Source: Jimgerdemannia flammicorona (taxonomy: Eukaryota). Taken from it: 41,723 nt of DNA. Location: positions 1 through 41,723 of the forward strand of contig RBNJ01000100.1 of assembly GCA_003990765.1 (NCBI GenBank), written 5' to 3'. Of the stretch, positions 9,100 through 39,382 are shown piece by piece; the stretch's first letter is position 1, and each line of letters begins with the position of its first letter. The position numbers and the translations under genes are program-made. The notes under the pieces are model-generated. The model had not been told where the DNA came from and ran no database searches. It saw only the letters and a list, made by a program, of their open reading frames with translations.

Positions 9100-9102
9100 A
9101 CT

Positions 9103-15812: not shown

Positions 15813-16643
15813 ATGCCTGCCACCTGCTGCCAAACTGCCTGCCGTAGCCAGCCCCTCTCAAGCCAGGTTGACTTCCTCTTTGGACACATCTAGGTTACCA
15901 TCCAAGGAAGGAACCGCCACTCAGAGGCCCTTAACCTCTCCAGCCAGGACCTAGAACACTATGTCCTCAACTACTGTGAAGTCATCAAAAGAGCCTACCT
16001 TACCACCAGCTGCCTAGAGATCTGGCATGAATACGAGATTGACCATCAACTCCTCCAATGGGCAAAGGACCTGCCCATGGACCAAGTCTCTGATTGGACC
16101 CACCTAGATAGGTACGAGCAAAGACTTGCCAAGAAGGTCCATCAAATCATATGCCATGTACCCTTTGTGATCTCCAACCTCAACTACATACAACTGAAGG
16201 ACTTTCAGAACCTCTCTTTCCCTGAGGTCGATGCCCTAGAAGTCAAGGTTGTCCAAGAAGCCAACTCCTGGATTGCCCTCAAGTCTACTGACTACAAACC
16301 CTACTGGAGCCCCCTCCTGAATAACAACCCTGACCAATGGCTCCAAGGTCTCTCTGACCTCTTTGAAGGACCACCTATCCGAATGGATATTCCCAGGCAT
16401 GAAGATTAAGAGCCCTACTTGGATGGCCTCAACTATATCAGATGGAGAATCCCTATATCAGCACCTATTCCAATGCAAGAACCATTTGCAGACCTTATTG
16501 ACTTCTCCATTCTGGACAACGAGCTATCTGCAACCACCACCCCCCTTGCCCCTGGAGAAGATGGTAATAACCCTGAGGAGGATTCCCCACCTTTCTCTCC
16601 CCTGGTTCTTAATTTCTCAATCAATGAGGATGTTGATTTCTAA
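15813..16643 (+). pseudogene. Element A accessory ORF3 (~276 aa, two premature stops), unknown function
   Basis: ATG at 15813 is in frame with track ORFs 16077 and 16419. Own TATAAATA at 15741. Stop overlaps the PPT. Confidence 0.8.
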
Positions 16644-16654
16644 GGGGGGAAGGA
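16642..16654 (+). promoter_or_regulatory. Polypurine tract of element A
   Basis: AAGGGGGGAAGGA directly before the 3' LTR. Confidence 0.9.
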
Positions 16655-17425
16655 TGTAATAGAACAAACAGATGGGACATGATGAGACAAACAATCATGT
16701 GACCTGGCAGTGACATCATCATACGATCAAGTGTGGCATATGAATAATGAACAAATAATGCAAAATGACATGGAAAATGATATCCAGCTTATCCCCAATA
16801 ATCAGCGCCACAGCAACAGTTGCCACAGCTGCTGATTATTGCCTAGTAATTGAGGTTCTGATCACAAAGATATTCTTTACCAAAAATTACCTGACAAAGG
16901 TCGCAATCATAAACCTCATTATAGTTACCAAATTAGTCACTCATACTTAGTCAGAAATCGTGGACCAACTTGTATAAATACCCCCCAGTTTCCATCTGAA
17001 ATAAAGCAGTTTTAGTTCAGCCCTTGATATAAGAATCAAGCCCCCCCCACACACATACATTCCCCTGAGTCTTAGTAATAATATCTAAGTGACTCTAGTG
17101 TTTCTGACTAAACTCCAGAAGCCTAGCTAACTTCTGCCAGAACTGAGACTGGTATATAAATCCCCAAAGACTTAAGTAAACCTATTGAATCTGAATTCCA
17201 AGGTGAATTTAGTCTGTGCACAGCAAAGAATAAGACTCTCGAAATAGGGCACAAGAGAAAGACCTTTGAAAGATAAGGCACTGCTGCTACATACAACTAC
17301 TTTAAGTGAGCACTTCCTCAAACTGAAGGCTTCTTGGTACACATTGTGTACTAAGTCCCTAAGTAATAGTCCACTTCCCTAATTATCCAAAGGATAAGAG
17401 AGGGGTAGAAGTGAGAGTTATTACA
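16655..17425 (+). repeat. Element A 3' LTR (771 bp)
   Basis: TGTAATAG...TATTACA. Differs from the 5' LTR by transitions and a 4-bp insertion. Confidence 0.95.
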
Positions 17426-20400
17426 ACTCTGTTCACATATCCTTGTTACCAAACCTTGCCATTGCCCCCCTGAAGGACTCCAACCTATCTACCATCCAGT
17501 CATCAGATCTCCCAACAGCTCCTCCTACCTTAAAACCTTCTCCTGCAGGCCTACCTACTGCTCCTCCTCAAACACAAATAGCCAATGTCCTGCCAATCTC
17601 ACTCAAACTGCTAATACCCACCCAACAGTGAGCCAACTATCACTCACCCCCCCCCACTAGCCAACATCTCAAGTCCTCCCAGCAATTCCCCTCACCCACT
17701 GGCCTATGCCCCACCTCCAGTCTATCTCCTATTTTAACCCAAAAGTTCCCAAAAACCTCACACTCTCCCAGCCAATGTTCTGGTGTCTGCACCAAACCCC
17801 CAACTTGCCCTATATTGTAACACTCCTCACAATCAAGGCAGCCACCATCCACCAGATACCTGGTGTGGAAATTCAGCATGACATTCCTCCACAGTATTCG
17901 CCACTACACTATCCAAAACTTGGGAGAAAGCTACTGCTGTACCTCAGCACTCCAAGACCAGATACCTGCCCAGTCCCACTCCTCACCGATTCCAACTGCC
18001 TGCCAACTGCTCAGTCAAAGATCCTGGCCAAGACCCTACTGATACTCCACTCCATCTCCTATATCAAAGTAGCAAGTGGAGTGCCTCCCAGTAACAGTCT
18101 ATCTCATCACCACATACTAGGTCCCCACAACACCTCTCCCTCATTATCTTGCCAGTGCAGACCAATTCTGTATGCTCTATCGACCACTCCCCACCAAAAG
18201 CCCTTAAACCTTAGCCTCTGAATTCCATTGAGCCCCACTAAAGAGAGTAGATCTTCCGAGGACCCTTGGGGGGAGGTTCTCATCTCCCACATCTTCTGCA
18301 GCAGAGGCACCCAACTCCCTCCTTGTAGTTCAGCTGCTCTCCTCAACCACCAGGCTTGCAAGCAGTGCAACCTTTTAGGAAAATCCACAAGGTCAAGACC
18401 TCTCCTGACCACTGGTGTTGCAAGAGTATCCCAACTAATCTGGGACCTCCTCCCTGCCCAAATCCAATCCCTAGCCACCTTTGTCAGCCTCTTTACCACC
18501 CAAGCTGGGAAGTCTAGGTGGTAGGCCACATACCATAGCTTGGAGTACCAGTATATATTCAGAATTGCTACCTGTCCTGCTAGAGAGATATGGTAGCCTC
18601 TCTAATCTCAAAGGGCCCCCTCCCAAGCAGCCACCCTGCTCTCCCATCACACTCATGGCAGGACAGAGCCATACATAGAGAGGAAGATGCCCAGATACTG
18701 TACTACCTCACCAGTAGGGATAATTGTTCCAATGACATCCCCACCTACTAGCCTATTCTCCAGCAGCATAGTCTCACACTTATGCCAGTTGAGCTTCGCT
18801 CCAGAGTAATCCTCATACCATTCCACCATCTTCTTAAGTGCCTTGACATCTGCCACAGACCCAAGGCCAACCACCATATCATCTGCAAATGCTCCCACCT
18901 TCCACACTATGCTATAGATAGAGAGTCCTTCTACCTTCTGGCAAATCCTATCCATCAATAGTTCCAATAAGAGGGCATAAAGAATAGGGGACAGGGGGTT
19001 CCTCTGAGGAATCCCTCTTTTCAAGGTAAACACCAGACCATGATGACCATTACACATCAGTGCTGCCTGACTGCCTTCTAGCAGATTCAACATAGAAGCC
19101 CAAAATCCTGGAGGAATATCAATACGATCCAACACCTTGTTCAGCCCAACCCACCAGACCCAGTCATAGGCCTTCTCCTGGTCCAAGAAGACTAACCTTC
19201 CATCCAGTCTACAAGCCCAGGCCCCTTCAATGATACCATGCACCCATGCAGTCCCATCTCTTATAAGTCTGCCTCCAACAAAGCCCCACTGCTCCTCCCC
19301 CAGCACCTGTTGGACAACCTTCTGCAGTCTTGCAACAACTACCTTAGTCACCATCTTCCTATCCATGTCCAACAGCATGATCGGCTACCAGTTCTTCCAG
19401 TCTTCTCTCCTCCCCTTGTCTTTATACAATAAAGCCACCAGCCCAAGGTCCTACTCTCTGACCCACTCACCACTCTGAAGAACATGATCACAGAGAGCAG
19501 TCATCTCACCCAAAATGCCAGGGACCTTAACCATCTTCTTCCAGAAGTCCTATGGTAGTTCATCCTCCCCTAGTGCTGTTCTAGTTATAGTTGCTGCAAG
19601 GACACTCTGGACCTCCTCACCTCACACCGGCAAGGCCAAGTCATTCAGTCCAGCTACTTGTAGTGGCCTCCATTCCCCTAATGTATCTTCAATAGCTGCC
19701 CTATCAGCACCCCCTTTTTCCTCACTCCACAAACCCTGCTATCTCTCTTTCAAAACCTCTAAGATTCATTGCATGCCATGTACCATGTCCCCATCAGTAT
19801 CTAGGACTCTATCTCACTGATGTCTCACCCTCCTAGCTTTGAGCAGATGAGACAAATATCTAGTAGGCCACTCATCCTCCTCAAGCCCCTGCCACCCTAG
19901 CCTAGCAGCCATATCTTGCATATGTACCTCCTCCTCTTCTCTCAACACCTGTTGCAGTTCCATTATCTCCAATCTAACCTGTGCTAACCTCTAATCCTCC
20001 ACCCTATCAGAAGTGAGCAAACCTACCCAATCCATATGTAATCTCCTCAGCCTATTGGAAGCACACCTTGTGCACTTCCTCCTCTGTCTCCCTGCTTCTC
20101 TCCCAGTCCCTCCCCAATAGACTCTCACAGCCTCTTTCAATCTCATCCAACGGACACCCACCAACAAACCCTCATATCTCCAGCAAGAGACTTTCACCTG
20201 AATGTCCTCTACCCATGAATCCCACAACCCCTTCTCAGCCAGCAGGGAGGAGTTAAGGCACCAATGTCCAGATCTATCTCCACTCCCCCCAAACTGCCCC
20301 TAACCCAATAGTCCCTAGTGATCAGACCATGGGCACTATTCCACCTCCAAAATCTTCTAGATATCAGACCCCCAGCATTCTGCCATCAGAATCCAGTCAA

Positions 20401-21030
20401 TTCTTGTACCTAAGCCATTCACCCAATGCATGTAGACCCTAGAGTTGCCCCATCACATTCTGCCTATATCCCCTAAGGAGCTCAGCTGCTCCACCTCCTC
20501 CCATACATTCAGGTCTCCACTTCTCCCTCCTGTACTCTGCCCACCATCAGTTCGGTCCAGATGCTGATCCCGAACCATATTAAAGTCCCCCCCAAGTACA
20601 TCAACCCCTTTCTCCAAGAGAATATCCTCCTCCAGCAGCTCCTTAATCCATGCAATCCTCTCACCCCTAACCACAGGGCAGTAGCAAGAGCCAACCCTCA
20701 CCGACTCCCACTCTGGCTGATGCCAATCTCTCCAGACCAAGCAATCACTCCAGCTCCCAATACCCCCCAAATCTCCTCTATCCTTCTTTATCAGAATCAC
20801 TACTTTTCCAAACCAAGCAGCAGCCCCACCCCATTCCCTAGTCCACTCAACCTGATCATCCTCATCCTTATACCAAACATCCTGCAGTAGAAAGAGATCA
20901 GCCTCCAATCCCTTGAGCCAATTAAAAATGTTCTTATGCCACCCAGATCTCCTTAGCCCATTCACATTCAAAGAGAAAATGTTGGTTGTACTGTTCATAA
21001 GAGAAAAAGGTTGTATTGTGAACTCACCCT

Positions 21031-23060
21031 CTACAATTCCACATCCTGCTCCTCCTGCAATAAATCTAAGTCATGATCAGTAGCTAGTTCCTGCTCACCA
21101 GCTTCCTGTGCCTCCAACCCTCCCAGAAGTTCTACCATTGCCCCATCTTCTTGCTCCTCAAAGTTCTCACGATATTCCTGACAGGTCTTCTGTCAGAACC
21201 ACAAACCATACCACCTACCCAAGAGTATGCTGCTCACTCACCAGCAACCACTGCCAGCTTGGCCCTTCTCATCTCATCAACCTCATATCCCTCCTCCTCC
21301 AGGAAAATCGAAAGAATCTCCCCCTTCAGTACCTCCACCACTCCCTTACTGTGCAAAATCTGTGCCCAATGCTCCTCAGGCATTACTCACAGGTCCACTT
21401 CCCCCAATGTCTCAGCCGTGAGGTTATCCATCACCTTGTTCATTTACAGCAAGTTCCCCACCTCCTTCCCTCCTGGAGTCTCTGGCCATCCAATGTCCAA
21501 CATTATGGTGTCAGCCCCTACACTGGCAGCCTCATCTCACTCCTCCTCAAGGACATCCATCAGCTCATCCTCACCAACCACCACTACCTGACCCCCTTTT
21601 TCCACATCAGAGACCCCAAAGTGCACCTGCTGGGCTCTCTTCATCGACATGTTCTCTGTTGTCCGTCTCTTTCCAGCCAGGCCCCTCCTGATAAGAGGGG
21701 GGGTTGTATCCAGCTCTAGCTCCCAGACCTCAAAAGTGCCATTGGTAAAGGGGTCCTTGCTCAATACCTTTTCAGCCTCTTTCTTATCTACCTCTACCTC
21801 CCCAACCCCTTTACTCGCCCAAACACTGGCTTCGATACCCCCAGACCCTTCAGCTCCCACTACCTTCTGCTTTGTCTCTACTTTCATACTTATAAGTAGC
21901 TCTCACTGTCTCCTGCACCCCTGCGCCCACTCTCACTGCTTTCTGTCAGTATGGGTGCATTTCCCATCTACAACCTCCAGATGTGTCAACTCCTCATATA
22001 TCTTCCAGACCCTTGCCCTCCTCTCTACAGCTCCACTCATCTCCTCTAGTGCCTCCAACAAGTCCTCCTCCTCCTCCTCACTCCCCTTCACCCTCGAAAC
22101 CTTACAGATGAATGCCCCCCACATCAGCACAGAAGGCCAGTCACTTGTCTTCCCTGTGGCCTCCTTGCCTGCCAGCCGAATCCTGACATCAATGTCATCC
22201 ATCCTGATCATCATCCCCTCTCATATCTGAAAGCTGATATCCACCATGTCACCATACTCAATCATCACCTCCTCCACCCTCTTTCTAGTCTTCTCCTTCA
22301 TCACCATGGGCACCCCCTTCACCAGAAGCTACACCACCCTGAGATCTTATTGCAGGCACTGCACCATAGGGACCACTACCTCTCCAACTACAACTCCAGT
22401 CTTCAGTGCCTCATCTAGTGGGCCTGTCTCCTCAAAGCCCACCTCAACCCCCTCCAGACCCTTAAAGAACTTCACTGAGGCTGCTTCAGCCACCTGCTTC
22501 GAAATAAGCCCCAGAACCATCCTCACCATCACCACTAAGCCCCAGAAGCACAAGGTTACTGCAAACTCTGAGATTGACTTCTTGAGCAATAGGGTCACTG
22601 CCAGCCCTATTACACCATCTGCCAGGTCCCCCTTTTGCATCGGGAACCCCTGCCCCACCTGGTCATCAGCCATCACATCTCTTTTTTTTTCCTGATTCCC
22701 CATCACACTCCCATCAACAGTCACACCCCCAGTCACAGCACCTCCAGTCCCTATGCCTGCACTCCCAGCCAGAGTACCATCTCTCCTCCCAAGGCTTATC
22801 TTGCCCTTCCCCTCAGCAGTACCAGCCCTAGTACCAGCTGGCCACCTACTCCCCTTAACCTTATCTGTGAAGCTCGGGAGACCAGATCTTCCCCCATTGC
22901 CACCAGACACTAGTCTCTCTCCAGAGCCTTCTCTACTTTTTGGCCCCCCAAAGGCCCCCATCCCCAGGCCATAATCCCTCCTCACCTACTGCCAGTTGAA
23001 GGTCCTAGGTCCACCTGACCTAGTATGTATACCTGCATATTCATTGCTTTCTATATTGCT
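21031..23060 (-). pseudogene. LINE copy 2 ORF1 (start approximate)
   Basis: Track pieces 22347-22985, 21933-22214 and 21537-21887 are homologous to copy 1 ORF1. Confidence 0.8.
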
Positions 23061-23161
23061 AGTCACCTTCCACCAAAAACATTATTGAAAGTGTTGCCTG
23101 AGTCTTGTGTCACCTGAATGTTACTGGTGAAAGGTTATGATCTACCCTGGTGAAGGAGGGA

Positions 23162-24304
23162 TACATCATCTTCACTTTTATCAGATTTGCTATCTGTATA
23201 TCTTCTATAGGTTATGGTACTATGAGTCACAGGGTGGTAGTAAGCTGGTAGCTGTGGTTCATGTTGCTTATACTTGGATAGTAGAGTTGTTGGTTCAATT
23301 TCAAGAGTTGTCTGGAGATATAGGTTGTGTTCTCCAGTCTCTTCATTATAGTTGAAGTAATCAGAGATAAATGCAGATTAGTACTCATGCCAGTGATCAT
23401 TGTTCCAATAAGTCTCATAGATAGTTATAAAATATTGTAAGTTCATTGGTAAGGTTGGCAGAGTGATCAGAGTTGGTAGAGATCCTTGGCTCAAGGTCAT
23501 GTCAGCATCAGAGGAATTATTGTCTTCTGCTTCATCTTTATCAAATTGGATTATATCATAGATATCCTTCATAGTATATCTGACTTGGGACATCTGCAGG
23601 ATGTGGTCCTTGGGGTGTGAGAAAGTTCTGTCTATAGTCTGTATATACTCAATATACTTATGGTTGAGTTCTTGTATCATATCATCAATTTGGCTATAGG
23701 ACAGAGTTACAACTATTTTGGCAGTAGTAACTTGGAGGTAGAGAATAACAGTGCTATATTCATAAAAGAGTTCTCTATATTTATGGGTGATGAGCTTCTA
23801 GTGTTGCGACATCTGGATAATATCTATATCATAGTGGTATTCAACCATGTCTTCTAAGAGGCAGCTGATCTGATAGTAGCTTGAGATTTGTCCAATTCAG
23901 TAGACCTCATTAAGTATGTTCAGGGCATTCTATCAGGCTTCCATGAAGTAGAGGAGTACTAGGCTATAGATATTTATGAGAGGCAGAGGGGGTGTGGCTT
24001 GGTTGATAATAGTATTCCAAATGTCAGCACAGATGCAGTTATAGATCTTGATGGTCATGTTTGGGTTATTTGTTTGGTTTGTTTTAATTCTCTGTTTCAA
24101 CACATCTTAGTGCTTGGTATATATGCATTTGGTTCTGATTGGTAAGATTCTGTTTATATAATTCTTATGTTCTGTGACTTTGTATTGACTTAGCTTTGTA
24201 TGCTGTAACTTCGATTTGACTCAGCTTTATGATCTTACAGGTGATTTCCAGATCTATTCAGAGATTACATGTGATTTTAGTAGCTTGGAGGTTGTGTGCT
24301 TATA
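23162..24304 (-). mobile_element. Solo LTR C1, right part, carrying the start of the LTR-encoded ORF (ATG 24058; the ORF finishes at 8055)
   Basis: Reverse complement of 37372-~38495. Ends CTTA(T)A, followed by TSD GGATG. Confidence 0.85.
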
Positions 24305-24781: not shown

Positions 24782-26148
24782 TATAATGTACTGGCTCAAT
24801 GGAGGCAAATTACAAGGTTGGGGATTGATGTAATTTGGCTTGAGCCCCCAGTTACTTTGTCAAAAAGCAATAAAATGTTCTAAGGTTTCTGAGGTCCTTG
24901 GTATTTGGTGATATAATAGTCAATCTGGATATCTGTGAGCGGTTTCCTTATTGGGATAGTTCTTTGAGTGTAGCAGCGATTTGTGTGTGAATAGACTTCC
25001 TTCTTGGGTCAACTGGGAATGGTACAATTTTGTATAGCAAGGTAATTTCCAAAAGTATGTGATTTCTGGGTGACGGTCTTGATGTGGTGATCTTTGTGTA
25101 GTACAATGATCTCCTTGTATGTGATGGTCTGGCAATTTAGCAGTTCTCCTTATGCAGATTTGGCGGATAACTCAATTTGACTCATTGGGAACAATGAACA
25201 ACTCAGACAGCATGAATCGGGTTCCTCTGGGAATAATAACTCAGGTGGCACGGGTTCTCTGGGAATGCAGATAACTCAAAAATGGCAGATAATGCAGATT
25301 CTTCCTGAATCGGCAGACTTCTTGGAAATGGTGACTTCAACTGGGAATTAACTTAGATGGCACAGATTCTTCTAAATCAGTGGCTTCAACTGGGAATATG
25401 GCAGATAACTTGGAGATGGCAGATGATGCAGATTCTTTCTGAATCAGTGGGTTTCTGAGAAATAACTCAGATTCTTAGTAAGTTACATCAAAGACTGGCT
25501 TCATTTGCACGGGGTTACATCATAGACTGGCTCCACTGCGAAGTTGCATCAGAAAGACTGACTTGTGGTAAGAAAGGCGGGCTCTTCTGGGGATATGGTG
25601 GATAACTGGGAAATGGCAGTGAAGTTCTTCCTTGAACTTGGCAGCAAACTGGGATTCTTCAGGCTTATCTGGCAAGCAACCCAAAAATGAACTCATTCTT
25701 TGTATCAGAAAGTGGACCAGAGTGAAAAGGGGAAATAAGCTCACAATCTCCTAGTAGTGGCTGTAGAGTTTCTCTCGAAGTGTGGTAGGCAGACTTGTCT
25801 TTTGTTTCAATTTTGGACTTTTCAAACTGAGGTTTATTCACTCTTATCTCTGGGGTAATTTATACAAGTTGGTTGCTATCTGGTTACTATGTGGCTAACT
25901 ATAGATCTGCTACTTATGGTAGGTATACAGAGTCTGTACGGTGTACAGGACCTGTACAGTGTACAGAGTCTGTATGGTGTACAGAGTCTGTACAGGTAAA
26001 CAGACCCTTTCTGGTATCTCTGGCTATTTATACAGTTTTCCATAGCAATGGTTACTAGTTACTATGCTGTGTGTTCGCATTATCTTGCCTAATTGTTTAT
26101 ATCATCTAGTTAAGATATAATTCAGGTGATACATTTTGGTTTATTACA
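24782..26148 (-). repeat. Element B 3' LTR (1367 bp)
   Basis: Direct repeat of 33743-35144. Preceded on the - strand by the purine-rich AGTGGGGGCTGA (26149-26160, PPT). Confidence 0.93.
25923..25994. repeat. Four 18-bp palindromic tandem units in the B 3' LTR
   Basis: Consensus GTGTACAGAGTCTGTACA. Confidence 0.9.
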
Positions 26149-26703: not shown

Positions 26704-29700
26704 GGTGTAGAGGGGAAATATAGTTTGAGGTGATTGATGTGTACTGGTGTTCTCAGGATTCGTCCATCTATGCTTCTTAAATAGATGCTGGTTCCTCTGA
26801 TATTGTATACAAGATAAGGTCCTTCCCATTTTGGTTCTAGTTTGGCAGCAAAGTTTGTCTCAATCATGCTTCTCCAAACTAGGACTTGATCTCCAATCTT
26901 GATCTCCTGATCCTTCTATTTTTGGTTATAGTACTTCTTTTGTCTTTCCTGGGCTTTGATAATCTGTCCTTGGGCTTGATTTCATAACTGTTCTGCCTTC
27001 TTAAGGAGGTCTTCAAGATTCTCATGGTCAGCAGTTCTGGTTCTCTTGGCAAACATCATTTCGAATGGCTTTTGTTTGGTGGATGTGGCAGGGGTATTCT
27101 GAATTTCCCATAGGATCTCAGGTAAGCAGAGATCCCAATTAGTATAATTGACTCAAGCAAGTCCTTTCTTGATGGTCTGATTTATTCTCTCTGTCATGCC
27201 ATTAGTCTGAGGGTGGTATGATGTGGTCCTTTTGAGGTGAATCTTGTGAATTTGGGCATAACTTGTGATTATGTTGTTGATGAATTCCATGCCTCGGTCA
27301 GAGATGAGTTCTTCTGGAGGTCTATATCTGAGTGTGAGTCCATTGAGGAGGCCTACAATAGTTAAGACATCTGCAATTTCCATTGGAAAAGCCTCGGACC
27401 ACTTAGTCAGATGTTCTATAAATACAAGGATATATTTATTTCTTCTTGATATAACTGGTAGAGGTCCAATTACATCTACTTCCCATCTTTGAAAGATGTG
27501 AGTGAGTGGGGGAATTAGTTGCAGAGGGGCTTGATAGTTCTTCTTTCCTTAGTACTTCTGGCAGATGTCACATTTCTGAATAATGTCCCAGACTTAAGTT
27601 CTAAGGTGGGGTCAATGTTGATATTGTTTTCGAATCTTGTCTTCTGTACTTGTCTGTCCTTGGTGGGCTTTTTGATATTCTTGTCAGATGAGATCTTCTT
27701 ATTCCTTGATGGTCTGAGGAGCTTCCTTTAGGGTGTGGTTCCTCAGGACACCCTTCTTCTGATTCATTGGGGCTGGCGGAAAAGTACATCAACATTGTTG
27801 TGGGCTTTCCCTGCTTTGTGAATGATGGTGATTTTGTAATCCTGAAGGATAAGGATCCAGCGGGCTAGGATTCTGACAGGTTCCTTGTGGTTAAATAGCC
27901 ATTTGAGGGCTGCATGGTCTGTGATCAGAGTGAACCTTTTTTCAATAAGGTAATGCTTGAACAGGGTAACTGCCCATATGACTGCAAGGCATTCCAGTTT
28001 AGTGCTACCATAGTTCATCTGCTGCTGGTTGGTAGCTCTGCTTGCATAAGCTATCACATAGTGCTGTTGATCAGGTCCTTCTTGGGACAGTACTGCCCTG
28101 AGGCTATCTTTAGAAGCATCTGTATACAAAATGAATGGCTTCTGTAGATTGGGGTGCACAAGGATTGGTGCTGTAGTCATGCGGTTCTTGAGTTCTCTAA
28201 AGGCTTTTTCCTGTGATTCTGTCCATTTGAATGGCACTCCTTTCTTGAGAAGGATTCGGATTGGGGCAGCGATTTGGGCAAAATCTTTGATAAACCTTCT
28301 GTAGTAGGATACTAGTATCAAGAATGATAGTGTTTCCTTTAGAGTCTTGGGTACCAGCCAATTGTTGATCTTCTTGGGTTTCTTTGGGTCTGCATGAGTT
28401 CCTTCTTTTAAAACCATGAATCCCAGGAATTTGAGTTTCTGTTTTCCAAAGTAGCATTTCTTTACATTTAGTCTCAAGTGATTCTTGCAGGTGAGCTTGA
28501 AGAATTCCTCTAGGTGGTGCAGGTGTTCTTCGAAATTTGCTGAATAGATGTTGGAATCATCCATGTATACAATCAGACAGTAGTGGATCAAGGGGGCATA
28601 GACTGAATTCATCATCCTCTGGAAGGTGGGGGGTGCATTGCAAAGTCCAAAGGGCATTCGGAGATATTCAAACAGTTTTCCTAGAGCAAGGAAGGCTGTC
28701 TTTTGAATGTCCTTGGGGTCCATGGGGATCTCATGGAATCCTGCGAAGAGGTCCATACTGCTGAAGTATCTGGCATCTTGTAACTGGTCCAAAAGGTCAT
28801 CGATTCTGGGCAAAGGATAAGCATCCTTTTTAGTGACTGAGTTGAGTTTTCTGTAATCCACACAAAGTCTCCATCCTTCTTTCTTTGGTACAATAAGTAT
28901 AGGGCTGGCCCAGGGGCTGGTAGAGGGTCAGATGACTCTATTGTCTAAGAGTTCTTGGATGTGCTCCTTTTCAAATGTTTTTAAGTGATGGGGTATTCTA
29001 TAGGGTTTCTGCCAGATGGGTATTACACTTCCTGTATTTATGCTGTGGTGATATAATGGATTGTATGGCAGGTTGCCATAATCAGTGGTGAAGATATCTT
29101 GATATTTGTTGAGAAGTTCTACTAGTTGTTGCTGTTGTTGAGATGTCAATTCTTCTCCAATGTTGGTGGAAGGCTTCACTGTCTCCTGGGTCACAGAGGG
29201 GCCTTTCCTTTCTTCTGGGACCTTTTGCCATTTCCCAGTAGGTTTAGTTCATAAACTTCCCTATGAGTTTGGTTGAGAAAAGGCACCAGATGTCCTATGA
29301 TGGTTCCTTTTGGCAAGATGATGGTCTCCCAACTTTGGTTGGTTCCTCAGGAGTGTACTGAATTCATCTTGTCAGGGAATGTGTGTCCCTCTATGTCCAG
29401 GTGTGGGATATCTTTCTTGGGCTCAAAGAAAAGGTTTCTGAGATCAGGTGGTGCAAAGATTTCGAATGTGGTTTGTTCTCCAGGCTCCAGGATGAGATTC
29501 TTGTGCAATCTGACTGGTTGCCGGTATACTTGCTGGGGAACATTCCTCTTGAGATGGTTGACTTGAAGGAGATGTACCTCTTTTCTGTCTGAACTTCCAA
29601 ATCCCTTGGCTTGTCTTGTTCCTTTGGTTAGTTCAGAGACTTCCTATAACTGTGGGGTCTTGACCTTCATGAAGACTGCTTGGGAAATCTTCTGTCCTCT

Positions 29701-32700
29701 AATGATTCGGTACCATTCTACACTGCTGTTGTATAGGATAACCTTGATTTTGCCTATATATCCAGGGTCAATGGTTCCTCCTTCTACAGTTACCCCTTGT
29801 CTGGCAAGTCCAGACCTTGAGGTCAGTTGAATATAAGCTCCTTGAGGTGGCTGCATGACTAATCTAGTTCTAACCATAAAGGTTTTTTCAGGCTTGATAG
29901 ATTTATCCTCCAGGCTGTGAAGATCATATCCTACATCCTCTGGATGGGCTTTGGTCAGGGATTTGGCCTTAGGGTACAGCAGGGTATACTGGGCAATGTC
30001 CTTGCTGAGTTCAGATTTTCCTAAGGCTGAAGCTCCACTAGCGGAAAGCCTCCAAGCTCTAAGGTTGAGGTGTGGCCATCTGGCTCCAGTAGAGGGGTCT
30101 CAGAGGTAATTGATTCCCCTCCTTCCTATAGGGTCAAGGGCTTCCATGAAGTTGGTGGCATCTTCTGCCCATCCTTGGTAGGTTGCATATCTGATGTGAG
30201 CTAGGATGTCTTCTCTCAAATCATAGATCTTGAGAATTCTTTTTCCAGACTTCTTGGTCTGGTTTTTTTGAATCTGACTTTTTCAGATCTGACTTCAGTT
30301 ATCTCCTTTCTTCAAGGTGTGCACTACAATATCATGACTGAGGTGAATCTTCTGATGTCTGCAGTCTCGGCAGTCAGGGTGTCTCCCATGGTTGCAGTAT
30401 CCCATTGCTCAGAAATGATATTCCCGGCTATTTATCTCTTATTGTCTTGGGAATCAGTACCCATCTTGATCATAGGTTGGGGGAAGAGTAGACAAGGGGT
30501 ATATTTCTGTTCGGGTAAAGAAGCCTTGTCCTCTAAATTGACTTTGTAATCTTGTGGTGACTTCTTGAAAGGTGGTAGACTGTGCAAGAGTAGTTGGGGG
30601 TTCTGGTCTCTGGGGTCTCTGTCTTTCTTGTTGGTCCAACAGATGACACTGATAGCAGTAGTCTTGGGGAGAGTGGAAGACCATTTGATGTAGACATCTT
30701 CTTAGCCAGAAAGCTTTCTCTTAGTGGGTTTCTTTCTTAGAGATAATGGTGATAGTACTGGGTCCTTCCTCTGTATTCCAGGGGTCATTATCTTCAGGTG
30801 GTATCCAGCGAGGGTCATCTCAGGGGATGAGTTCGGGGACTTCTTCTTCATCAGGTGCTTCTTGTTCAGGAACTTCTTGGTCGGAAGTTTCTTCTTCCTC
30901 AGATGATTCTTGACCCCAAATTGCTTGTACTTCTGCAGCCTCGGTTACAGATGTTTCTGGGACATGTCTGCATTTCTTCTTCTTTCTTCTGTACTCTGGG
31001 CAGGCTGTGCCAGGTGATTTCCTTGTTCCCATGATCTTGGAGGAGTACTCAGGACACTTGTATCTCTTGAGGCATGTAGGGCATCCTTTGGCTTCTCCTA
31101 CAATGGCTCCAATAGTAATAGGGATAGTGTTTTTGGCCCACACATTATCTTCTGGTCTGTCATCCACCAGATTGATTTGGAGATTGAGTCTGGGATCATT
31201 TCCATCTTCAGATTCTTCCTCTTCTTCTGTGGTGGATTCTTCACTGCTAGCATATTCTTCCTGAATAGTGACCTTCTTTTTCTTCTTTGATTGCTATAAC
31301 TGGTCACCTTAACTCTGTACTTCTTACCTCAGTAGTCAAACTTGAGTACTTGTTGGTCGATATCAACAACTGCATTCATTTCCTTCATCCAGTTGGTGCC
31401 AAGAATCAAGTCATAGGTGACAGCTTCAGTGATAATAGCTTTGGGGATAGAGAACTGAATGTGTCCAAGGGAGATGGTGATGTTTCATACTTCTCCAAGG
31501 GGTTGAGTTCAGGTTCCATCTGCTACTATGATGCTGAGGTTGGATGGTCCATCAATGGGCCATTGGAGGGTGTCCAAGAATCATTTGGCAATAACATAGA
31601 CAGCTACTCCTGTATCTATGAGGATTTTTGATTTTTGTCCTCCAATGTCTCTATGTAAGTAGGTGCTGACATGTCTTTCAGCTGCTTGGATAGGGATAGA
31701 GGCTGGTTCTTGCTGTGGGATTGGAACTTGGCCAGTGCTAGACCTGGTGGTTCTCAGCAATTTGTTTCAGACCCCAGCTGGTATCAGTTGCAAGAACTGC
31801 AGGAGAGGAACTTCCATCTTGGCTTCTTGAATCTTCTGCCAGGCTTCATTGTAAATATCTCTAGACATGGTCTTTGGAGTGTACTTTTTCTTAGGCTTTG
31901 GAGCAGTAGGTTCCCATTCTTCTTGTTCCATTTCTTCATCTTCTGGTGGCAACTCGTTTGTCTTGGGGACAAAAGGTGAGGGGGTTCGGGGAGGTGTTTC
32001 TACTTGTTCTTTCTCATGTTCTTCATTCTCTTCTTGAATAATTCTTCTGCTGATATTCCTGGATGGTCTTCCTACAGGTCTCTTTCTTTTCTCTGCTGGA
32101 TAGACTGTCTTCCAGGTTGTAACCTTGGTAGGGTACAAGTCTAGGTCACTGTAGTCTTCACTGTTGCTTGCTTCCTCGAAATCTTCAACAGGATGGGCTT
32201 CAGTCTTCTTATACTGGGTGTCATTCCTTCAGTTTGGTGATTCTGAGTCCCTTTGGTCACTTCTTTTGTTGTCACATTCAGTGGCATAGTGTCCAAATTG
32301 TCCACAGTGGAAGCATTAGACTTGGGCTCTGTCTTGGATAGGGTACCTTCTTTCTTCTTGCTGGTAATTCTTGTTATCTCTTAGTGGATAACCTTGGCTC
32401 CTCTGTGGTGGATATCCTCTGTTGTCTTGGTAGCTCCGATTTTCATATATAGTGAGTTTTTCAATCTGGCCAACCAATTGGTCTAACTTGGAGCTGAGGT
32501 CTTGGATTTCACTTCTGTCCTTCTTTCCTTCCTTGGCTGACCTTCTTTCTTCAGATCTTTCTTGTTCTTAAAGGAGTCCTTGTAGGGCTTTAACCAGGAT
32601 ATCTTCCTTATCTTCCTTCTTGTCATGATCACTCCAGGTAGTTCCTTGCCTGACATTAAAGAATCCTTGGGCTGCATCTACTTGCTCTTCAGACCTTCTG

Positions 32701-33710
32701 ATGCCTAAGGTGTGGACATGCTGGGCAATATTCAGGGGAATTTCATTCATGAAGGTCATTGGGCCTATGATGTCCTGGTTGGTGGCATTGAACCCGGCAG
32801 AATGCATTCTCTTCTGGATTCTTGTGAAGAAGGCTCTGGGTGATTCTCCAAGATTCATCTTCATCTCCATGATGGATTTCTGAGCCTTGTGGTGGGTTTC
32901 ATTTCCTGCATACTTTTCAATGAGCCAGTGGACCATGGCCTCATATTCTAGCTCATCAGACATTGCTGCTTATATCTGTCTTGCTAGTTCTGAATCTCGG
33001 TTGTTTGCTATTTGATAGAAAATTCCTCTGGCTGGTTCTCTGAGCTAGGCTTTGTAGATGGCAATTTTTCTTTCATCCGAGAGGTTTCTCAAGGCTGCAA
33101 TTCCTTCAATTCCATCAAGGAATTCTCTGGGGTTCTCCTCTGGGTACCCTGCAAAGGTTAGCAATGAGGTGGCTATTTTGTTATCACTTTCTTCTGATTC
33201 TGGTTCAGGTTCGGATTCTGATTCTGATTCACTTTCTGAACTGTCACTAGAGATGGGGGTGCTTGGGTATCTTGAAGATGGTGTTCTGGTCCTTGGGTAA
33301 GATGGAATAGGCCTAGGTATTCTTGTAGGAGCTACCTCTGATTCAGCAAGGGGTTGTGGTAGGGGTTCTATTGGTGAAATTGGTGGAACTGGTGTGGGGT
33401 GTCTGGCTGTAAAGTGTTGGGTCCAGGTAATAAAGTCTTCTAGTTCTTGTGCAAGTTCTCCAAAAACTCTAACAGGGCTGCCTGTATTGTCTGGTTGATC
33501 TGGTTGATCTGGTTGGGGATTTCAGGCTGTACTACCTCTTGCTTCTGGTTGGGATCCTTCTGATGCTGGGTAGTTGGCAAGTCTTGAAGTGATTACTTCT
33601 CTTCCTGTCCAAATGCTAGTGATGACTGGTTCTCCTATAGTGGCAGAGGTTGGTGTTGTATCAAATATATCCAGTTTGACTGTGGGTTCTTGTGAGCTAA
33701 AAAGTCACAT
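26700..33710 (-). pseudogene. Element B gag-pol (degenerate)
   Basis: Gag knuckle CFHCGQFGHYATEC (~32275-32316). Protease LIDTG (~31615). RT DYRKLN, MPFGLCNAP and YMDD. RNase H TDAS. Integrase ISDRG, YHPQTNG and WEGPY. Confidence 0.93.
29588..29995 (-). pseudogene. dut: Trimeric dUTPase domain between protease and RT of element B
   Basis: Motifs DVGYDL, SRSGLA, GTIDPGYIGKI, KISQ, RQAKGFGSS. Confidence 0.93.
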
Positions 33711-33722
33711 TGATTTAAAATC

Positions 33723-33740
33723 TTCCCAGTTGAGCCCCCA
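33723..33740 (-). promoter_or_regulatory. Primer-binding site, tRNA-Pro type
   Basis: TGGGGGCTCAACTGGGAA begins 2 nt after the 5' LTR. Resembles the tRNA-Pro PBS TGGGGGCTCGTCCGGGAT once CpG decay is allowed for. Confidence 0.8.
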
Positions 33741-33742
33741 AA

Positions 33743-35144
33743 TGTAACATGCTGGCTCAATGGAGGCAAATTATAAGGTTGGGGGTTGATGTAGTTTGGC
33801 TTGAGCCCTCAGTTACTTTATTAAAAAGCAACAAAATGTTTTAAGGTACCTGAGGTCCTTGGTGTTTGGTGGTATAATAGTCAATCTAGATATCTGCGAG
33901 CAGTTTCCTTATTGGGATGGTTCTCTGAGTATAGTGGTAATTTGTATGTGAATGGACTTCCTTCTTGGGTCAACTGGGAATGGTACAATTTTGTGTAGCA
34001 AGGTAATTTCCAAAAGTATGTGATTTCTGGGTGACAGTCTTGATGTGGCAATCTTTGTGTAGTGTGATGATCTCCTTATACATGATGGTCTGGCAATTTA
34101 GCAGTTCTCCTTATATGGATTTGGTAGATAACTCAATTTGGCTCACTGGGAACAATGAACAACTTGGATGGCATGAATCAGGCTCCTCTGGGAACAATAA
34201 CTTGGGTGGTGCAGGTTCTCTGAGAATGCAGATAACTTGAAAACAGTAGATGATGCAGATTCTTCCTGAATCAGTAGACTTCTTGGAAACAGCGACTTCA
34301 ACTGGGAATTAACTTGGATGGTGCAGATTCTTCTAAATCGGCAGCTTCAACTGGGAATATAGCAGATAACTTGGAGATAGCAGATGATGTGGATTCTTCC
34401 TGAATCAGTGGGTTTCTGGGAAATAACTTGGATTCTTAGCAAGTTATGTCAAAGACTGGCTTCATTTATATGGGATTACATCATAGACTGGCTCCACTGC
34501 GAAGTTGCATCAGAAAGACTGGCTTGTGGCAAGAAAGGTGGGCTCTTCTGGAGATATGGCAGATAACTGGAAAATGGCAGTGAAGTTCTTTCTTGAACTT
34601 GGCAGCAAACTGGGATTCTTCAGGCTTATCTGGCAAGTGAACCAAAAACAAACTCATTCTTTGTATTGGAAAGTGGACTGGAGTGGAAAGGGGAAATAAG
34701 CTCACAATCTCCTAGCAGTGGCTGTAGAGTTCCTCTCAAAGTGTGGTAGGCAGACTTGCCTTTTGCTTCAATTTCGGACTTTTCGGACTGAGGTTTATTC
34801 ACTCTTATCTTGGGGTAATTTATACAAATTGGTTGCTATCTGGTTACTATGTGGCTAACTATAGATCTGCTACTTATGGCAGGTGTACAGAGTCTGTATG
34901 GTGTACAGGACCTGTACAGTGTACAGAGTCTGTATGGTGTACAGAGTCTGTACAGTGTACAGAGTCTGTATGGTGTACAGAGTCTGTACAGGTAAACAGA
35001 CCCTTTCTGGTATCTCTGGCTATTTATACAGTTTTCCACAGCAATGGTTGCTGGTTATTATGCTATGTATTCACATCATCTTGCCTAATTGTTCATGTCA
35101 TCTGGTTAAGATATAATTCAGGTGATATGTTTTGGTTTGTCACA
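33743..35144 (-). repeat. Element B 5' LTR (1402 bp)
   Basis: TGTGACAA...GTTACA on the - strand. TATAAATA at 35021-35028. Confidence 0.93.
34883..34990. repeat. Six 18-bp palindromic tandem units in the B 5' LTR
   Basis: Same unit as 25923-25994, with two extra copies. Confidence 0.9.
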
Positions 35145-35276: not shown

Positions 35277-35975
35277 ATGTCCATACCTTCTGAATATGTC
35301 TATGAAGTCCTTTGAGAAGTAGTTTTTGATCACCAACACTAGTATAATTGAGAATATATTAATCTTGATACTTATGATATAAAGTAGTTTTTACAAGCTA
35401 TTGATGAAATTGCTACAAGAATACAATTAATCATAAGACACTTTCAAACTACCAAGCTAATAGACTCCTAGTAAACAGTGGCTTGACCCTATCAGAGGTT
35501 ATAGATGAATACAATATCTCTATTTTCAGACAGCATATTTTAGTTTATACCTACTAATTACTCTGAGGAATACCCTATACTATTAGTAGTATAAGAGGAG
35601 TAACTCCAGCCAAAATTGAAAGTCTTAGTGATCAATTAACAAGTCAAATTGAGCTAGACCTTATAAATGACTTTAATCTACAAAAGTATCATAATGATAA
35701 TGTATAGCTATATAAGAATAAAGTCTTCAATAGACTCATTAGTCTATTTCAAGTATATACTTACTTCTCAGATTCAGATATATATGAATGTCTGGCTATA
35801 GAGAATTCCTATACTATTCAATGTAAGGCTAGCCTCACCAATATCTATATCATCATCTATGATTACTAGATCAGAACTAGACTCTGATGAGTCTAGTACT
35901 ATATCATCTGGGTCTAAGACTCTGAAAGAAGTCTTATCTCCTTTCAAAGAAGTCTGTTACTATCTCATAATGTAA
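35277..35975 (+). pseudogene. ORF inside solo LTR D, homologous to the element A ORF3 (stops plus two frameshifts)
   Basis: MSIPSEYVY..EYINLDTYDIK / NYQANRLL..LSEVIDEY..RQHILVYTY*LL*GIPYTISSIRGVTPAKIESLSD. Confidence 0.6.
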
Positions 35976-36635
35976 TACATTATATCACAAAGTCTTAGTT
36001 GAAAATCTAGAACATTACTTCATAAATAGTACATAAAAATGATATCATTAAATAGCATTATTATAACTTCATGATAATACTATTATAATGTAACTTTTAT
36101 ATCATTCTTAAGTGACTTTTTGTCTTATATCTTTTAGCCAATAGTCAGTCAATATATAAAGTCTTTAAAATGTATAAATACCCCTAAGTAAGCAACTCAA
36201 TAAAGGACAGAATATTTACAGAACATTTAATCTAAAAAGGAAAACAATTAAGACTTAAAAAGTCTATAATATATAGATAAGTCCCTAAATAATTTAAACT
36301 AAAAAAGACTACATCTAAAAATATATATCCTGAACTTTATAAATACTTGAACTCTAAAGAATCTAAATATAATTCTCAGAACCTGACTATATCTAAAAAA
36401 GATATACTAAAAGACTTAGACTTTAAAGAATTAAAGTCTGTAATTGCTAAATTGTTATCTAAGTCTATCAGAAGGAGACTAGATCAATTAGAAGTACAAT
36501 AGACAGTACTTAGGTATTAAAACAGCTACTTCCTCAAGCTACAGATATCTGACATAAGTGTCTTTAAGTTATTGATATTAAGAATCATTAATTTAAAGAA
36601 TGTAATTACCATAACAGTAAAGATATACTATTACA

Positions 36636-37371
36636 AAGATAGTTATTGACAAAGATATAGCTACTATAGTGAAGAATTTTTTGCTAAATTATGCCAAAGT
36701 TTATGGCTTATCTAGTCCAGTAAGAAATGTTAATCAGATTACTCAATCAATTATCTTTTTACCTATAGAAATAAGCTATAAATCTGTTTACCAAGACTTC
36801 CTAGCCAACCTGGAAGATAATAGTACTCTGAATGTACTCAGATATGATGCCTTTTACAAATTATAATACTAGCTAACTCTATATATCCAAATCATAAGCT
36901 TCCAAACTGATTTATGTGACACTTGTTAATACTTATAGAATAACTTACAATTCAAAGACTATAAAGAAGAAGAGGTCTAGGATTTATTAAAAAGATATAA
37001 AGAATATCTAGCCAAAGCCAAATTAAAATGAAATTATTATAATAAAAATACCAAATTGGCTGAAAAATAAAAAAAAATTCATCAATTAACCCTCACTAGC
37101 AAATAATAATATTCAATATTATAGCATTAATATAGTTATCCATTATAGCTATGACTGAGCTCAAAATGTTCACATTTCTCATTTAGATCAACAGATTGAC
37201 AAAGTATATTATCTTAGTACTTGCAAAGTATACTTGTTTGATATCTAAGATAAAGTGATCTATGAGTAAATTAATTATATCCATAATGAGAATAAACTTC
37301 TTAAAAAGGACCCAAACAGTATACTTAATCTGGTCTTTAATAGAATTAAGCAATTAAATAGAGGTGAAAAA
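36636..37371 (+). pseudogene. Sola-type transposase, segment 3
   Basis: FLLNYAKVYGLSSP..FLP...SYKSVY..FYKL..TDLCDTC..HYSYD*AQ..INY..NE..KKDPNS. Confidence 0.78.
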
Positions 37372-39382
37372 TATAAGTGCACAACCTCTAAGCCACTGAA
37401 ATCACATGTGACCTTTGAACAAATCTGGAAATTATCTGCATAATCATGAAGCTGAGTCAACATGAAGTCACAGAACATAAGATTTATATAAACAGAATCT
37501 TACCAATCAGGACCAAATATATATATATCAAGCACTAAGATATATTGAAACAGAGAACTAAAACAAATAACAACCATAACTTCTGAACATATACAAACAT
37601 GACTACTGAGATCTACAACTATATCTATGCTGATATTTAGAATACTATTGTCAATTGAGCTACACTCCCTCTGCCCCTCATGAATATCCATAGTCTAGCA
37701 CTCCTTTACTTCATGGAAGTCCAATGAAATGCTCTGAATATGCTTAGCAAGGTCTACCAAATCAGACAGATCTCAAGCTATTATCAGATCAGCCACCTCC
37801 TAGAAGATATAGTCAAACACCACTATAATATAGACATTATCCAGATGTCTCAATACTAGAAACTCATTGCCTGCAAATACTGAGAACTCTTTTATGAGTA
37901 TAGCACTGTTATTCCCCATCTCTGAGTTACTACCAGTGAAATGGTTACTACTCTATCCTATGGTCAAATCAATAATATGATATAAGAACTTAACCACAAG
38001 TACCTCGAATATGTTCAGACCATAGACAGAACCTTCTCATACCCCAATGACTATATTCTGCAAATGCCTCAAGTCAGATATGTAATGAAGGATGTCTATA
38101 ATATAATCTAATTTGATAAAGATAAAGCAGAAGACAATGATTTCTCTGACATCAACATAACTATAAGCCAAGGATCCCTGCCAACCCTGATCACTCTGCC
38201 AATCTTGCCAATAAACTTACAATAGTTCATAACCACCTACAAGACTTATTAGGACAATGATCACTAGTATGAATATCAATCCACATTCACCTCCAATTAC
38301 TTCAACTACAATGAAGAGATAGAAGAACACAATCTGTACCTTCAGATAACCCTCAAGATTGAACCAACCACTTCACTGCCCAAGTATGAGTGATATAAAC
38401 CACAGCTGCCAGCTTACTACAACTCCATGACTCATAGTGCTATAACCTATAGAAGATACACAGATAGCAAATCCAATGAAAGTGAAGATGATGTACTCCT
38501 CCTTTACCCACCAACTCCATATCTAGTATATGAGACAGACAATGCTATTCTGTAGGATGGTGATGAAGTCTCAATGTATTATTACCTCAGTGAATAAGGA
38601 GAATTAATTCACAAATAACTCTTTCTAGATAACTACTTTATCAGAGATAATGCTATCAATAGTGATGTCATTGAAGACTATCTAGATAGCATCTAAATCT
38701 ATAAATAGTTTAGCAGTCATAGTATAGTTAGATTAGCCTTATATGACATAACTATGAACTAACTCAGCAGTCAGATAATCTCTTGATATGTCAGATCACA
38801 CTTGTACTATATGACTACATTCCAACTCAGCAAGATACTTAGTGCTACATTCACATCTAGCATAGTCCAGATAACCTCTCACTAGTATAAATATCTCCTC
38901 CCCCACACCTCAGAATCTCAGACTGGAACAAACTCAAATACATAAGAACATTTCTGAATACTTCTCCACAATATCTCTTTATACAACTACTCCTAGTATA
39001 GTAATATCATGAATAGTGAATAAACCTATTTAATAACTCACAAACCACTCTTAAGTCAATCTACTCTCCATTAGGTCCCACTCCTAACCTTGTCACGAAA
39101 TTTCCTAATTGGGTATTGTCTGCAGCAATACACCAATTCAACTAAGCTGGTCTTAGTTTCTTGAATCTCCTGAAATATGGAAAATCCTAAACATCCAGAA
39201 CTAGTCCAAAAAAGGACTTTGGTTAAGACATCAACCTGATCTTGAAATCAATAAGCGTAGAGGACATACTCCATATGAAATTGATCTTGACTATAAGAAA
39301 ACAGTCTTTTAGAATATCTAGAACTTTCAGAAAACTCTTCCAAAACTAAGTAATGATTACTCTAATAAGTAACCCTCTTACA
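37372..39382 (+). mobile_element. Solo LTR C2 (2011 bp), uninterrupted
   Basis: T(A)TAAG...CTTACA. TSD AAAAA (37367-37371 / 39383-39387). Inverted homolog of C1. TATA boxes near 37485 and 38886. Confidence 0.85.
37599..38597 (+). pseudogene. LTR-encoded ORF (~332 aa, many transition stops), unknown function
   Basis: ATG to TAA spans 999 nt. Several stops are sense codons in the C1 copy, for example ADIWNT. Confidence 0.78.

Follow-up and report, generated by a model that had tools for sequence, protein, structure and literature searches.

In the 41,723-nucleotide stretch of the Jimgerdemannia flammicorona genome analyzed here (contig RBNJ01000100.1 of assembly GCA_003990765.1, positions 1 to 41,723 of the forward strand, referred to below as the window), two Ty3/Gypsy retrotransposons with long terminal repeats (LTRs) and a dUTPase domain, A and B, carry an additional open reading frame (ORF) on the sense strand between pol and the 3' LTR, which we call ORF3. 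Comparison with other copies indicates that both are real genes, interrupted by stops in the window and intact elsewhere, and that the A and B types are two real protein families not previously characterized. Judged by its sequence, a further locus, C, present in two copies, represents a similar gene of greater age, and a fourth one, D, is very probably a short relic of an A-type gene. The explanation we prefer for the whole, with a chance a little better than even, is that these are decayed copies of sense-strand ORF3 genes located between pol and the 3' LTR of dUTPase-bearing Gypsy elements. An earlier interpretation of the window from its letters, below called the sequence-only reading, had gone further and proposed one accessory protein family, shared by four different LTR retrotransposon families, exchanged between them as a mobile module, and located inside an LTR in C and D.

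ORF3 in elements A and B

The main features of the two elements are given in Table 1. Element A matched the Pfam domains zf-CCHC, dUTPase, RVT_1, RT_RNaseH_2, Integrase_H2C2, SH3_Tf2-1, and Chromo, and is flanked by a 5-bp target duplication (ACTCT). The Chromo match (7.8e-12), in the ORF at 14785-15165, lies at the integrase's C-terminal end and identifies A as a chromovirus. Element B matched dUTPase, RVT_1, RT_RNaseH, rve, and MLVIN_C; the Pfam scan gave no chromodomain match in it, and its pol ends after an MLVIN_C-like stretch. Both assignments agree with the sequence-only reading, which also had the positions of the two ORF3s right, and all nine peptides that it quoted are present at or inside the spans it named.

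The two ORF3s are placed somewhat differently behind pol. In A, pol stops near 15165 and ORF3 begins approximately 650 nt later and runs to a purine tract, stopping 11 nt short of the 3' LTR. In B, the pol stop (26700-26702) overlaps the ORF3 start codon in the tetranucleotide ATGA (26703-26700), and ORF3 ends 39 nt before the 3' LTR, which runs from 26148. The start codon of this overlap varies among relatives: at positions 3850-3856 of the metagenome locus L001, introduced below, ATAA is read where B has ATGA, so that the start is lost and the stop retained, and the homologue P0005 carries M at the overlap site. With the terminal stop counted, there are 3 stops in 277 codons of the A ORF3 and 4 stops in 172 codons of the B ORF3.

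Homologues of both types were found in protein collections. The open 171-aa part of the A ORF3 is 63% identical to P0001 (E 1.4e-65), and a profile search of 1.84 billion representatives identified five A-type homologues, P0001 and P0008-P0011, with E values from 6e-135 to 3e-12. A further candidate from this search, P0012, was dropped as a spurious repeat protein. For the B type, six homologues and then 17 were found (E 3e-97 to 3e-20). The full-length ones have 169-183 aa and 54-75% identity, and all share a conserved acidic tail, ...DAE-AY-YW-DD. All these homologues come from metagenome gene calls and are named 'hypothetical protein' or unnamed.

The stops in the window copies are private C>T changes. 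In B, all three internal stops align with Q or E of the homologues. For A, contigs of four public runs were aligned to the element; depths are quoted from run X1, where 581 contig pieces span the entire ORF3 region. At both internal stop sites nearly all copies read C, with a depth of 326.9 out of 329.7 at position 15891 and 183.2 out of 185.8 at position 16407. The indels avoid the frame: ten of the 12 that were listed, out of 24, fall in the 613-nt spacer upstream of ORF3, and among those listed the 828-nt ORF3 holds only two, a +1/-1 pair 4 nt apart in a single contig.

For the B type, selection was estimated from one pair. A metagenome scan with a seven-row alignment yielded a single locus, L001, in which a mostly intact B-type pol is followed by the same ORF3. 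Between B and L001, the proportions of nonsynonymous (pN) and synonymous (pS) differences in ORF3 are 0.26 and 0.84, respectively, so that pN/pS is 0.31, below the value of approximately 1 that the sequence-only reading had named as contradicting it. The same ratio is 0.14-0.18 in the protease (PR), reverse transcriptase (RT), and integrase (IN) and 0.29-0.37 in the dUTPase region; a segment at 27604-27864 of B (35 codons, 29% identity) had been paired wrongly and was excluded. Together with the indel avoidance among A-type copies, these values indicate that ORF3 is under purifying selection and evolves faster than RT and IN. Thus intact homologues, stops private to the window, avoidance of indels, and a pN/pS of 0.31 all argue that the A and B ORF3s are genes.

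In both types a helical core is followed by a disordered tail rich in acidic residues, which bears out the acidic tails proposed earlier as far as A and B are concerned. The A-type protein has approximately 250-340 aa, and its tail contains a repeated DLI-FS motif and a terminal P-x-[VI]-L-N-F; the B-type protein has approximately 170 aa and the tail motifs ...EW-SDPD... and ...AYAYW[ND]DD. Six homologues are complete at the C-terminus, and their tails carry a net charge of -13 to -19; the value is -6 in P0001, where the tail is missing. The core of the B type is mildly basic (+3 to +7), the proteins being acidic overall. A transmembrane segment was found in none of seven intact homologues, where the maximal 19-residue Kyte-Doolittle mean is 0.59-1.36; the usual threshold for such segments is 1.6. 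The statement that ORF3 is not an env gene holds on this ground.

The libraries searched contain no named relative of either type. Six intact homologues compared with Pfam at E up to 1 gave only sub-threshold chance matches, LST1 and HHH_RecD2. Profile searches of the PDB sequences returned nothing at all for A and nothing below E 0.08 for B, the matches being dynein regulatory complex subunit 4 and taxadiene hydroxylase. A match to an already characterized retroelement protein, which would have contradicted the earlier proposal, was thus found neither in Pfam nor among the PDB sequences. In the ESM Atlas no named relative was seen: feature scores reached at most 0.88 for A and 0.93 for B, for unnamed clusters, and the structure TM score did not exceed 0.37. 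Several unnamed clusters are common to the A and B listings, which we take as a lead only. Literature word searches gave no description of these ORF3 proteins, though such searches cannot prove absence.

Fragments C and D and their relation to the A and B types

The C unit is a repeat in inverted orientation, whose second copy had been pointed out in the sequence-only reading; the frame in copy 2 at present holds 14 stops in 333 codons. The two copies are 81.6% identical, their differences being 203 transitions and 21 transversions, and the ORF is free of indels. Over the 299 codons that can be compared, 12 stops are found in copy 2 and five in copy 1, at 15 positions of which only two are shared, and at one of these two the stop codons differ between the copies. 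In each of the other five frames, the majority of stops is common to both (17 of 21 and 19 in the two copies; 25 of 29 and 40; 6 of 7 and 11; 21 of 33 and 23; 17 of 28 and 23). Because few stops are shared in the ORF frame and most are shared in the others, this frame appears to have been essentially open when the two copies diverged and to have been wrecked later by C>T and G>A transitions. Several of the stop/sense pairs are TGA versus CAA, as CpG deamination on either strand would give.

The case of D is different. The ORF proposed at 35277-35975 has 16 stops in 233 codons, and across the region 35225-36030 each frame holds 19-30 stops in 268 codons, versus approximately 21 expected. Since no frame is depleted of stops, D is not an ORF; the quoted D peptide (35531-35638) is, in addition, out of frame with the proposed start at 35277. 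What remains is a stretch of 66 codons that matches positions 85-150 of the A-type ORF3 profile.

The placement of C and D inside LTRs was not borne out. The C unit ends with TTACA, as do the LTRs of A and B, but at its left edge both a TG and matching 5-nt flanks are missing, its copies are inverted, and D is a single copy, no second one being found in the self-comparison of the window. A gene residing in the LTR in the manner of sag should lie in a TG...CA repeat, either direct or solo with a target duplication, and no such repeat was recognized around C or D. The stop of the C ORF is directly followed by a purine run and then by approximately 775 bp, the LTR of A having 771 bp. By these features the unit may be read as well or better as a 3' fragment comprising spacer, ORF3, purine tract, and LTR, later duplicated in inverted orientation.

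The assignment of C and D to LTR retrotransposon families of their own could not be confirmed either. All sense frames of A and B compared by tblastn with the AT-rich regions revealed no gag or pol remnant near C or D (best E 1.9), so that their element families cannot be named. When the C and D flanks were aligned with the LTRs, spacers, and ORFs of A and B by a transition-tolerant DNA alignment under two scoring schemes, shuffles scored as high. A MAFFT alignment of the LTR starts and ends found only the 9-nt word CTAAGTAAT common to the A and C ends, too little to call.

The sequence-only reading had related the four loci by alignments made by eye, gap-free for C, A, and D. The aligned peptides exist, but their identity is weak: 7/37 for C-A, 6/36 for both A-D and C-D, and 7/15 for B-C. 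We searched all six frames of the window with hidden Markov models of the A family (6 rows) and the B family (18 rows), using 150 block-shuffled windows as the null. The top non-self matches of the A profile are D (8.7 bits) and C (4.2 bits); the latter passes the 99th percentile of the null without reaching its maximum of 5.4. Those of the B profile are C copy 2 (5.1 bits), 7648-7761 (2.6 bits), and C copy 1 (0.4 bits), with a null maximum of 3.3. Thus D under the A profile and C copy 2 under the B profile exceed all 150 shuffled windows. The weak match at 7648-7761 (minus strand), to positions 22-63 of the B profile, lies downstream of the C ORF in the putative LTR part, at approximately the 97th percentile of shuffled windows; its equivalent in copy 2 is at approximately 38900-39015 (plus strand). 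It is probably due to chance.

Single targets were also tested, each with 3000 global and 3000 local shuffles. D scored 18.6 bits against the A profile, and C copy 2 scored 10.9 bits against it, no shuffle of either kind being as high in both cases. Against the B profile, C copy 2 scored 10.2 bits (0/3000 and 1/3000) and C copy 1 scored 9.0 bits (2/3000 and 4/3000), so that three of the four tests of a C copy against a profile are at p of approximately 1e-3 or below. Reversed targets gave -0.5 to 1.5 bits in five tests, and reversed D had no match to the A profile. In pairwise Smith-Waterman comparisons over 54 frame pairs, A-D (z 4.6; 1/200 shuffles) and B-C (z 3.8; 2/200) stand out, while A-C (z 0.55) and A-B (z -0.42) are at chance; the off-frame pair of B frame 1 and D frame 2 also reached z 4.0. 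From these comparisons, the kinship of C with the B type seems quite probable, and its kinship with the A type likely, if less so.

Several lines suggest that A and B are themselves connected. The hhalign comparison of A with B places A72 at B59 and A106 at B92, and this register is identical, over approximately 50 residues and across a gap, to the one obtained through separate alignments of each with C. The helix strings of two independent, low-confidence AlphaFold2 models of A and B coincide at a shift of 18-19, with 89% agreement and a Matthews correlation coefficient (MCC) of 0.715; seven predicted helices coincide, and the next best shift outside +-3 has an MCC of 0.27. The sequence register, with an offset of 17-18, is within one or two residues of that shift. 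With C as an intermediate, with the agreement of registers, with the collinearity of the predicted helices, and with position, strand, and architecture in common, it appears moderately probable that A, B, C, and D form one fast-evolving superfamily.

A number of results weigh against such a connection. The direct hhalign comparison of A with B is non-significant: with deeper profiles E changed from 0.32 to 0.044 and 0.032, the probability staying at or below 1.6%, and 18 of 191 column permutations equal or beat the observed score. Non-significance of this comparison was the result that the sequence-only reading itself had set against one family of four, which by this measure is not established. 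Out of 3000 decoys, 14 do as well under the A profile as the highest-scoring B member; under the B profile, 2 of 3000 do as well as the highest-scoring A member, and the A copy of the window is at chance there. Adding C, or C and D, to a profile drew in no member of the other family, and hhalign gave P of only 0.016 for C versus A and 0.02 for C versus B. C copy 1 is weak under the A profile (1.9 bits; 135/3000 and 173/3000 shuffles as high), D is at chance under the B profile (1741/3000 and 1897/3000), and C versus D is at chance in the Smith-Waterman comparison (z 0.08). Hence, of the relatedness originally claimed, the matches of C to both profiles and of D to the A profile stand, and those of D to B and of C to D do not. 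The AlphaFold2 models, made from family alignments, have predicted local distance difference test values of 44.5 and 39.6, which makes the helix strings soft; the ESM Atlas gave no structural match bearing on the function of ORF3; and the metagenome gene calls that supplied all the homologues are a source favoring open frames.

The same results can be explained by two or more unrelated accessory genes, taken up independently at a permissive site that follows pol and precedes the polypurine tract. D would then be what is left of an A-type gene, C the remains of a B-type gene or of a third type, and both the C-A resemblance and the A-B register would be chance among helical acidic proteins. The low A-B probability, the permutations, the chance-level A copy, the weak C copy 1, and the failure of C to bridge the two profiles are all as expected under such an origin, and according to PMC5408684 LTR elements have captured ORF3s independently many times. 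Nevertheless we think it unlikely: C copy 2 matches both profiles (p <=3e-4), three independent alignments give one register, the seven predicted helices coincide at one offset, and the A and B ORF3s are alike in position, strand, and acidic-tail architecture, in host elements that share the dUTPase position.

Descent, exchange, and the layout of the window

If the four loci do form one superfamily, the degree of their divergence is compatible with descent. Identity between A and B amounts to 36.9% along 450 aa of RT-RNase H, 27-29% in the integrase, and 34% in the dUTPase, and a similarity between their gag proteins, though surely homologous, is undetectable at E 1e-3. With pol only 27-37% identical and gag beyond detection, twilight-zone similarity of ORF3 is expected under descent. 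The dUTPase is found in both elements, at 11055-11726 (plus strand) in A and 29647-30099 (minus strand) in B, with the zinc knuckle of gag before it and the protease after it. As described in PMC2864245, the position of dUTPase varies among fungal elements, and independent acquisitions have been proposed. Given the shared dUTPase position, the low pol identity, and the undetectable gag, an ancestral, fast-diverging ORF3 is the simplest account, and on balance we favor vertical inheritance of ORF3, the superfamily included, from a common ancestor of a dUTPase-bearing Gypsy clade.

The explanation offered originally, exchange of ORF3 between distant Gypsy lineages, would mean horizontal movement by recombination of co-packaged RNAs, with residence inside the LTR in C and D as for sag of the mouse mammary tumor virus (MMTV); it now appears very improbable. 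According to PMC5408684, bdelloid rotifers provide a documented case of ORF3s exchanged between types of retroelement, and the two C copies have the same left edge, which lies 227 nt ahead of the ATG. Furthermore, between B and L001 pS is 0.26 over the final 66 codons of pol and rises to 0.84 in ORF3, nucleotide identity falling from 0.81-0.91 to 0.63, which is compatible with recombination among B subfamilies; this contrast rests on 42-55 synonymous sites, however, and pol pS itself ranges over 0.46-0.65, so that we see in it a hint of recombination within the B lineage. Nothing indicates a transfer between A and B, whose ORF3s are more diverged than pol. The C unit has no TG start, and its purine run after the stop, followed by approximately 775 bp ending in TTACA, fits a 3' fragment with ORF3 and LTR; its copies are inverted rather than direct, and D is present only once in the window. 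These observations are better explained by vertical descent combined with fast divergence than by exchange.

Along the B-L001 alignment (L001 1-4101; window 26191-30500, minus strand), nucleotide identity is 0.63-0.77 in the gag-proximal and dUTPase part, 0.75-0.91 in PR, RT, and IN, and 0.63 in ORF3. This unevenness suggests either a mosaic history or very unequal rates.

Hardly credible is the remaining idea that the loci are chance open stretches whose similarity comes from reading through stops in AT-rich sequence: the 14 stops of C, the 16 stops of D, its lack of depletion in any frame, and hand alignments with just 16-19% identity would suit it, but it is refuted for A, B, and C, given the intact homologues, private stops, indel avoidance, and pN/pS of A and B and profile matches far exceeding the shuffles, and for D only the 66-codon relic survives.

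Table 1. Coordinates of the features in the window
Feature	Position	Strand	Basis or remark
Gypsy element A, chromovirus with dUTPase	8333..17425	+	LTR pair and Pfam domains
LTRs of A	~8333-9102 and 16655-17425	+	92.2% identity over 772 nt
A-type ORF3	15813..16643	+ (sense)	276 codons, 2 internal stops (codons 27, 199)
Gypsy element B, with dUTPase	24787..35144	-	LTR pair and Pfam domains
LTRs of B	24787-26148 and 33752-35144	-	87.9% identity over 1394 nt
B-type ORF3	26188..26703	- (sense)	171 codons, 3 internal stops
C unit copy 2, 2.0-kb repeat	37372..39380	+	inverted repeat with copy 1
C ORF copy 2	37599..38597	+	333 codons, 13 internal stops and terminal stop
C unit copy 1, upstream part	23149..24304	-	ORF from 24058 down to 23162, 299 codons, 5 stops
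C unit copy 1, downstream part	7284..8157	-	split off by LINE2 carrying element A
D relic	35477..35674	+	66 codons, 2 stops; matches A-type ORF3 profile positions 85-150
LINE1	59 to ~5883	-	Pfam RVT_1 1.2e-20, Exo_endo_phos 1.4e-10
LINE2 (RT and APE endonuclease), outside the ORF3 family	8158..23148	-	Pfam RVT_1, Exo_endo_phos

Self-comparison and a Pfam scan of 238 stop-to-stop ORFs, each of at least 60 aa, show the window as a nest of transposons set in AT-rich sequence with 28-32% GC. It contains two long interspersed nuclear elements (LINEs), the two dUTPase-bearing Ty3/Gypsy elements in opposite orientation, and the decayed fragments C (twice) and D. The sequence belonging to LINE2 itself comprises 8158-8332 and 17431 to approximately 23148, interrupted by element A; it is 76.5% identical to LINE1 (59-5667), and its poly(A) tail appears as a 19-nt poly(T) run on the plus strand (8158-8176). 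The order of nesting is clear. The C unit copy 1 was split by LINE2, with a 13-nt target duplication and the poly(A) run at the junction, and LINE2 was later split by A, whose 5-bp duplication lies at 8328-8332 and 17426-17430. D lies shortly to the right of B. The two C copies stand head to head, and once B is removed only approximately 2.7 kb separate them (24305-24786 and 35145-37371), with the D relic inside, an arrangement that points to an inverted duplication or to two nested old insertions.

The old fragments have 28-32% GC and the younger elements 42-50%; the LINE copies at 59-5883 and 17431-23148, with approximately 50% GC and a very strong plus-strand GC skew of -0.44 to -0.48, are unlike the remaining window. 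Decay proceeded almost entirely by transitions, as seen above in the comparison of the C copies (37372-38600 against 23149-24304). Between positions 15200 and 16650, most of the 40 best-supported differences of the A copy of the window from other copies are T or A in the window and C or G elsewhere. This transition-heavy decay fits repeat inactivation of a cytosine-deamination type, like methylation or repeat-induced point mutation.

Proposed role and known systems

The build of ORF3 might be that of an adaptor or regulator rather than of a structural or enzymatic part, though we put this forward tentatively and by analogy. ORF3 would act, without enzymatic activity, on expression of its own element: the helical core might bind the RNA, DNA, or protein of the element or self-associate, and the acidic tail, with its embedded short aromatic and hydrophobic motifs, might recruit a host factor. 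The B-type protein could be translated by termination-reinitiation at the ATGA overlap with pol, and the A type, approximately 650 nt beyond pol, would need a subgenomic or spliced mRNA. No RNA data set was listed with a match to the A ORF3 region, which counts neither for nor against such an mRNA. By analogy, proteins with a comparable role would be CERV of the Cer1 element, the retroviral Rev, and Tas of foamy viruses; an acidic transactivator is an equal alternative to RNA export of the CERV kind. A more sweeping version, in which ORF3 is a single ancient accessory gene of the whole dUTPase-bearing Gypsy clade, seems improbable to us. Under it, the gene would evolve fast through conflict with the machinery by which the host silences or expresses genes, acting perhaps against silencing, as a transactivator of the acidic kind, or as an adaptor for RNA export; it would also recombine between subfamilies, as the rise of pS between B and L001 hints, and in the C lineage have been taken into the repeated terminal unit, twice per copy.

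Additional ORFs are widespread in LTR retrotransposons, and a function is known for almost none of them, CERV being a rare exception. What is gained here is two clean families with intact natural sequences, for instance P0002 and P0008, a plausible translation mechanism for the B type at the ATGA overlap, and a testable hypothesis of one lineage: a solid annotation rather than a surprise. If ORF3s do counter host control or drive expression, they would offer a handle on the persistence of Gypsy elements despite inactivation of the cytosine-deamination type.

Retroviruses have accessory genes in or overlapping the 3' LTR, such as sag of MMTV and nef of the human immunodeficiency virus. They resemble ORF3 as small non-structural genes at the 3' end of the element; the A and B ORF3s instead end before the LTR. 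We know of no sequence relation between sag or nef and these ORF3s.

The closest functional parallel is found in Caenorhabditis elegans. CERV, like ORF3, is a non-env accessory protein of a Ty3/Gypsy element; it is described in PMC10309623 as a novel protein of Cer1 that is required for export of the genomic RNA. For CERV, the spliced mRNA and the export role were shown by experiment, whereas the role of ORF3 is proposed here by analogy with it.

In position, the sense additional ORFs (aORFs) of plant elements, as described in PMC7264820, are the nearest counterparts, being located between pol and the 3' LTR on the sense strand in many copies per family. The A and B ORF3s likewise lie on the gag-pol strand, follow pol, precede both the polypurine tract and the 3' LTR, and are open in many copies. 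Going by the descriptions, the best-known plant aORFs are env-like with transmembrane segments, which the A and B ORF3s lack. Bdelloid rotifers have dUTPase-bearing Gypsy-like elements with varied ORF3s, including non-enzymatic coiled-coil types (PMC5408684). The shared rotifer ORF3s described there are enzymatic (GDSL esterase and DEDDy exonuclease) and clearly homologous across classes, whereas the ORF3s studied here have no Pfam match and their sharing is only probable. Finally, fungal chromoviruses are depicted with an 'add. ORF' in a figure legend of PMC2864245 and have dUTPase domains, like elements A and B, again as far as the descriptions can be compared. Thus, by these accounts (PMC7264820, PMC5408684, PMC2864245), an extra ORF located between pol and the 3' LTR is already of a known kind, and what is new is the two particular ORF3 families, without a named relative in the libraries searched.

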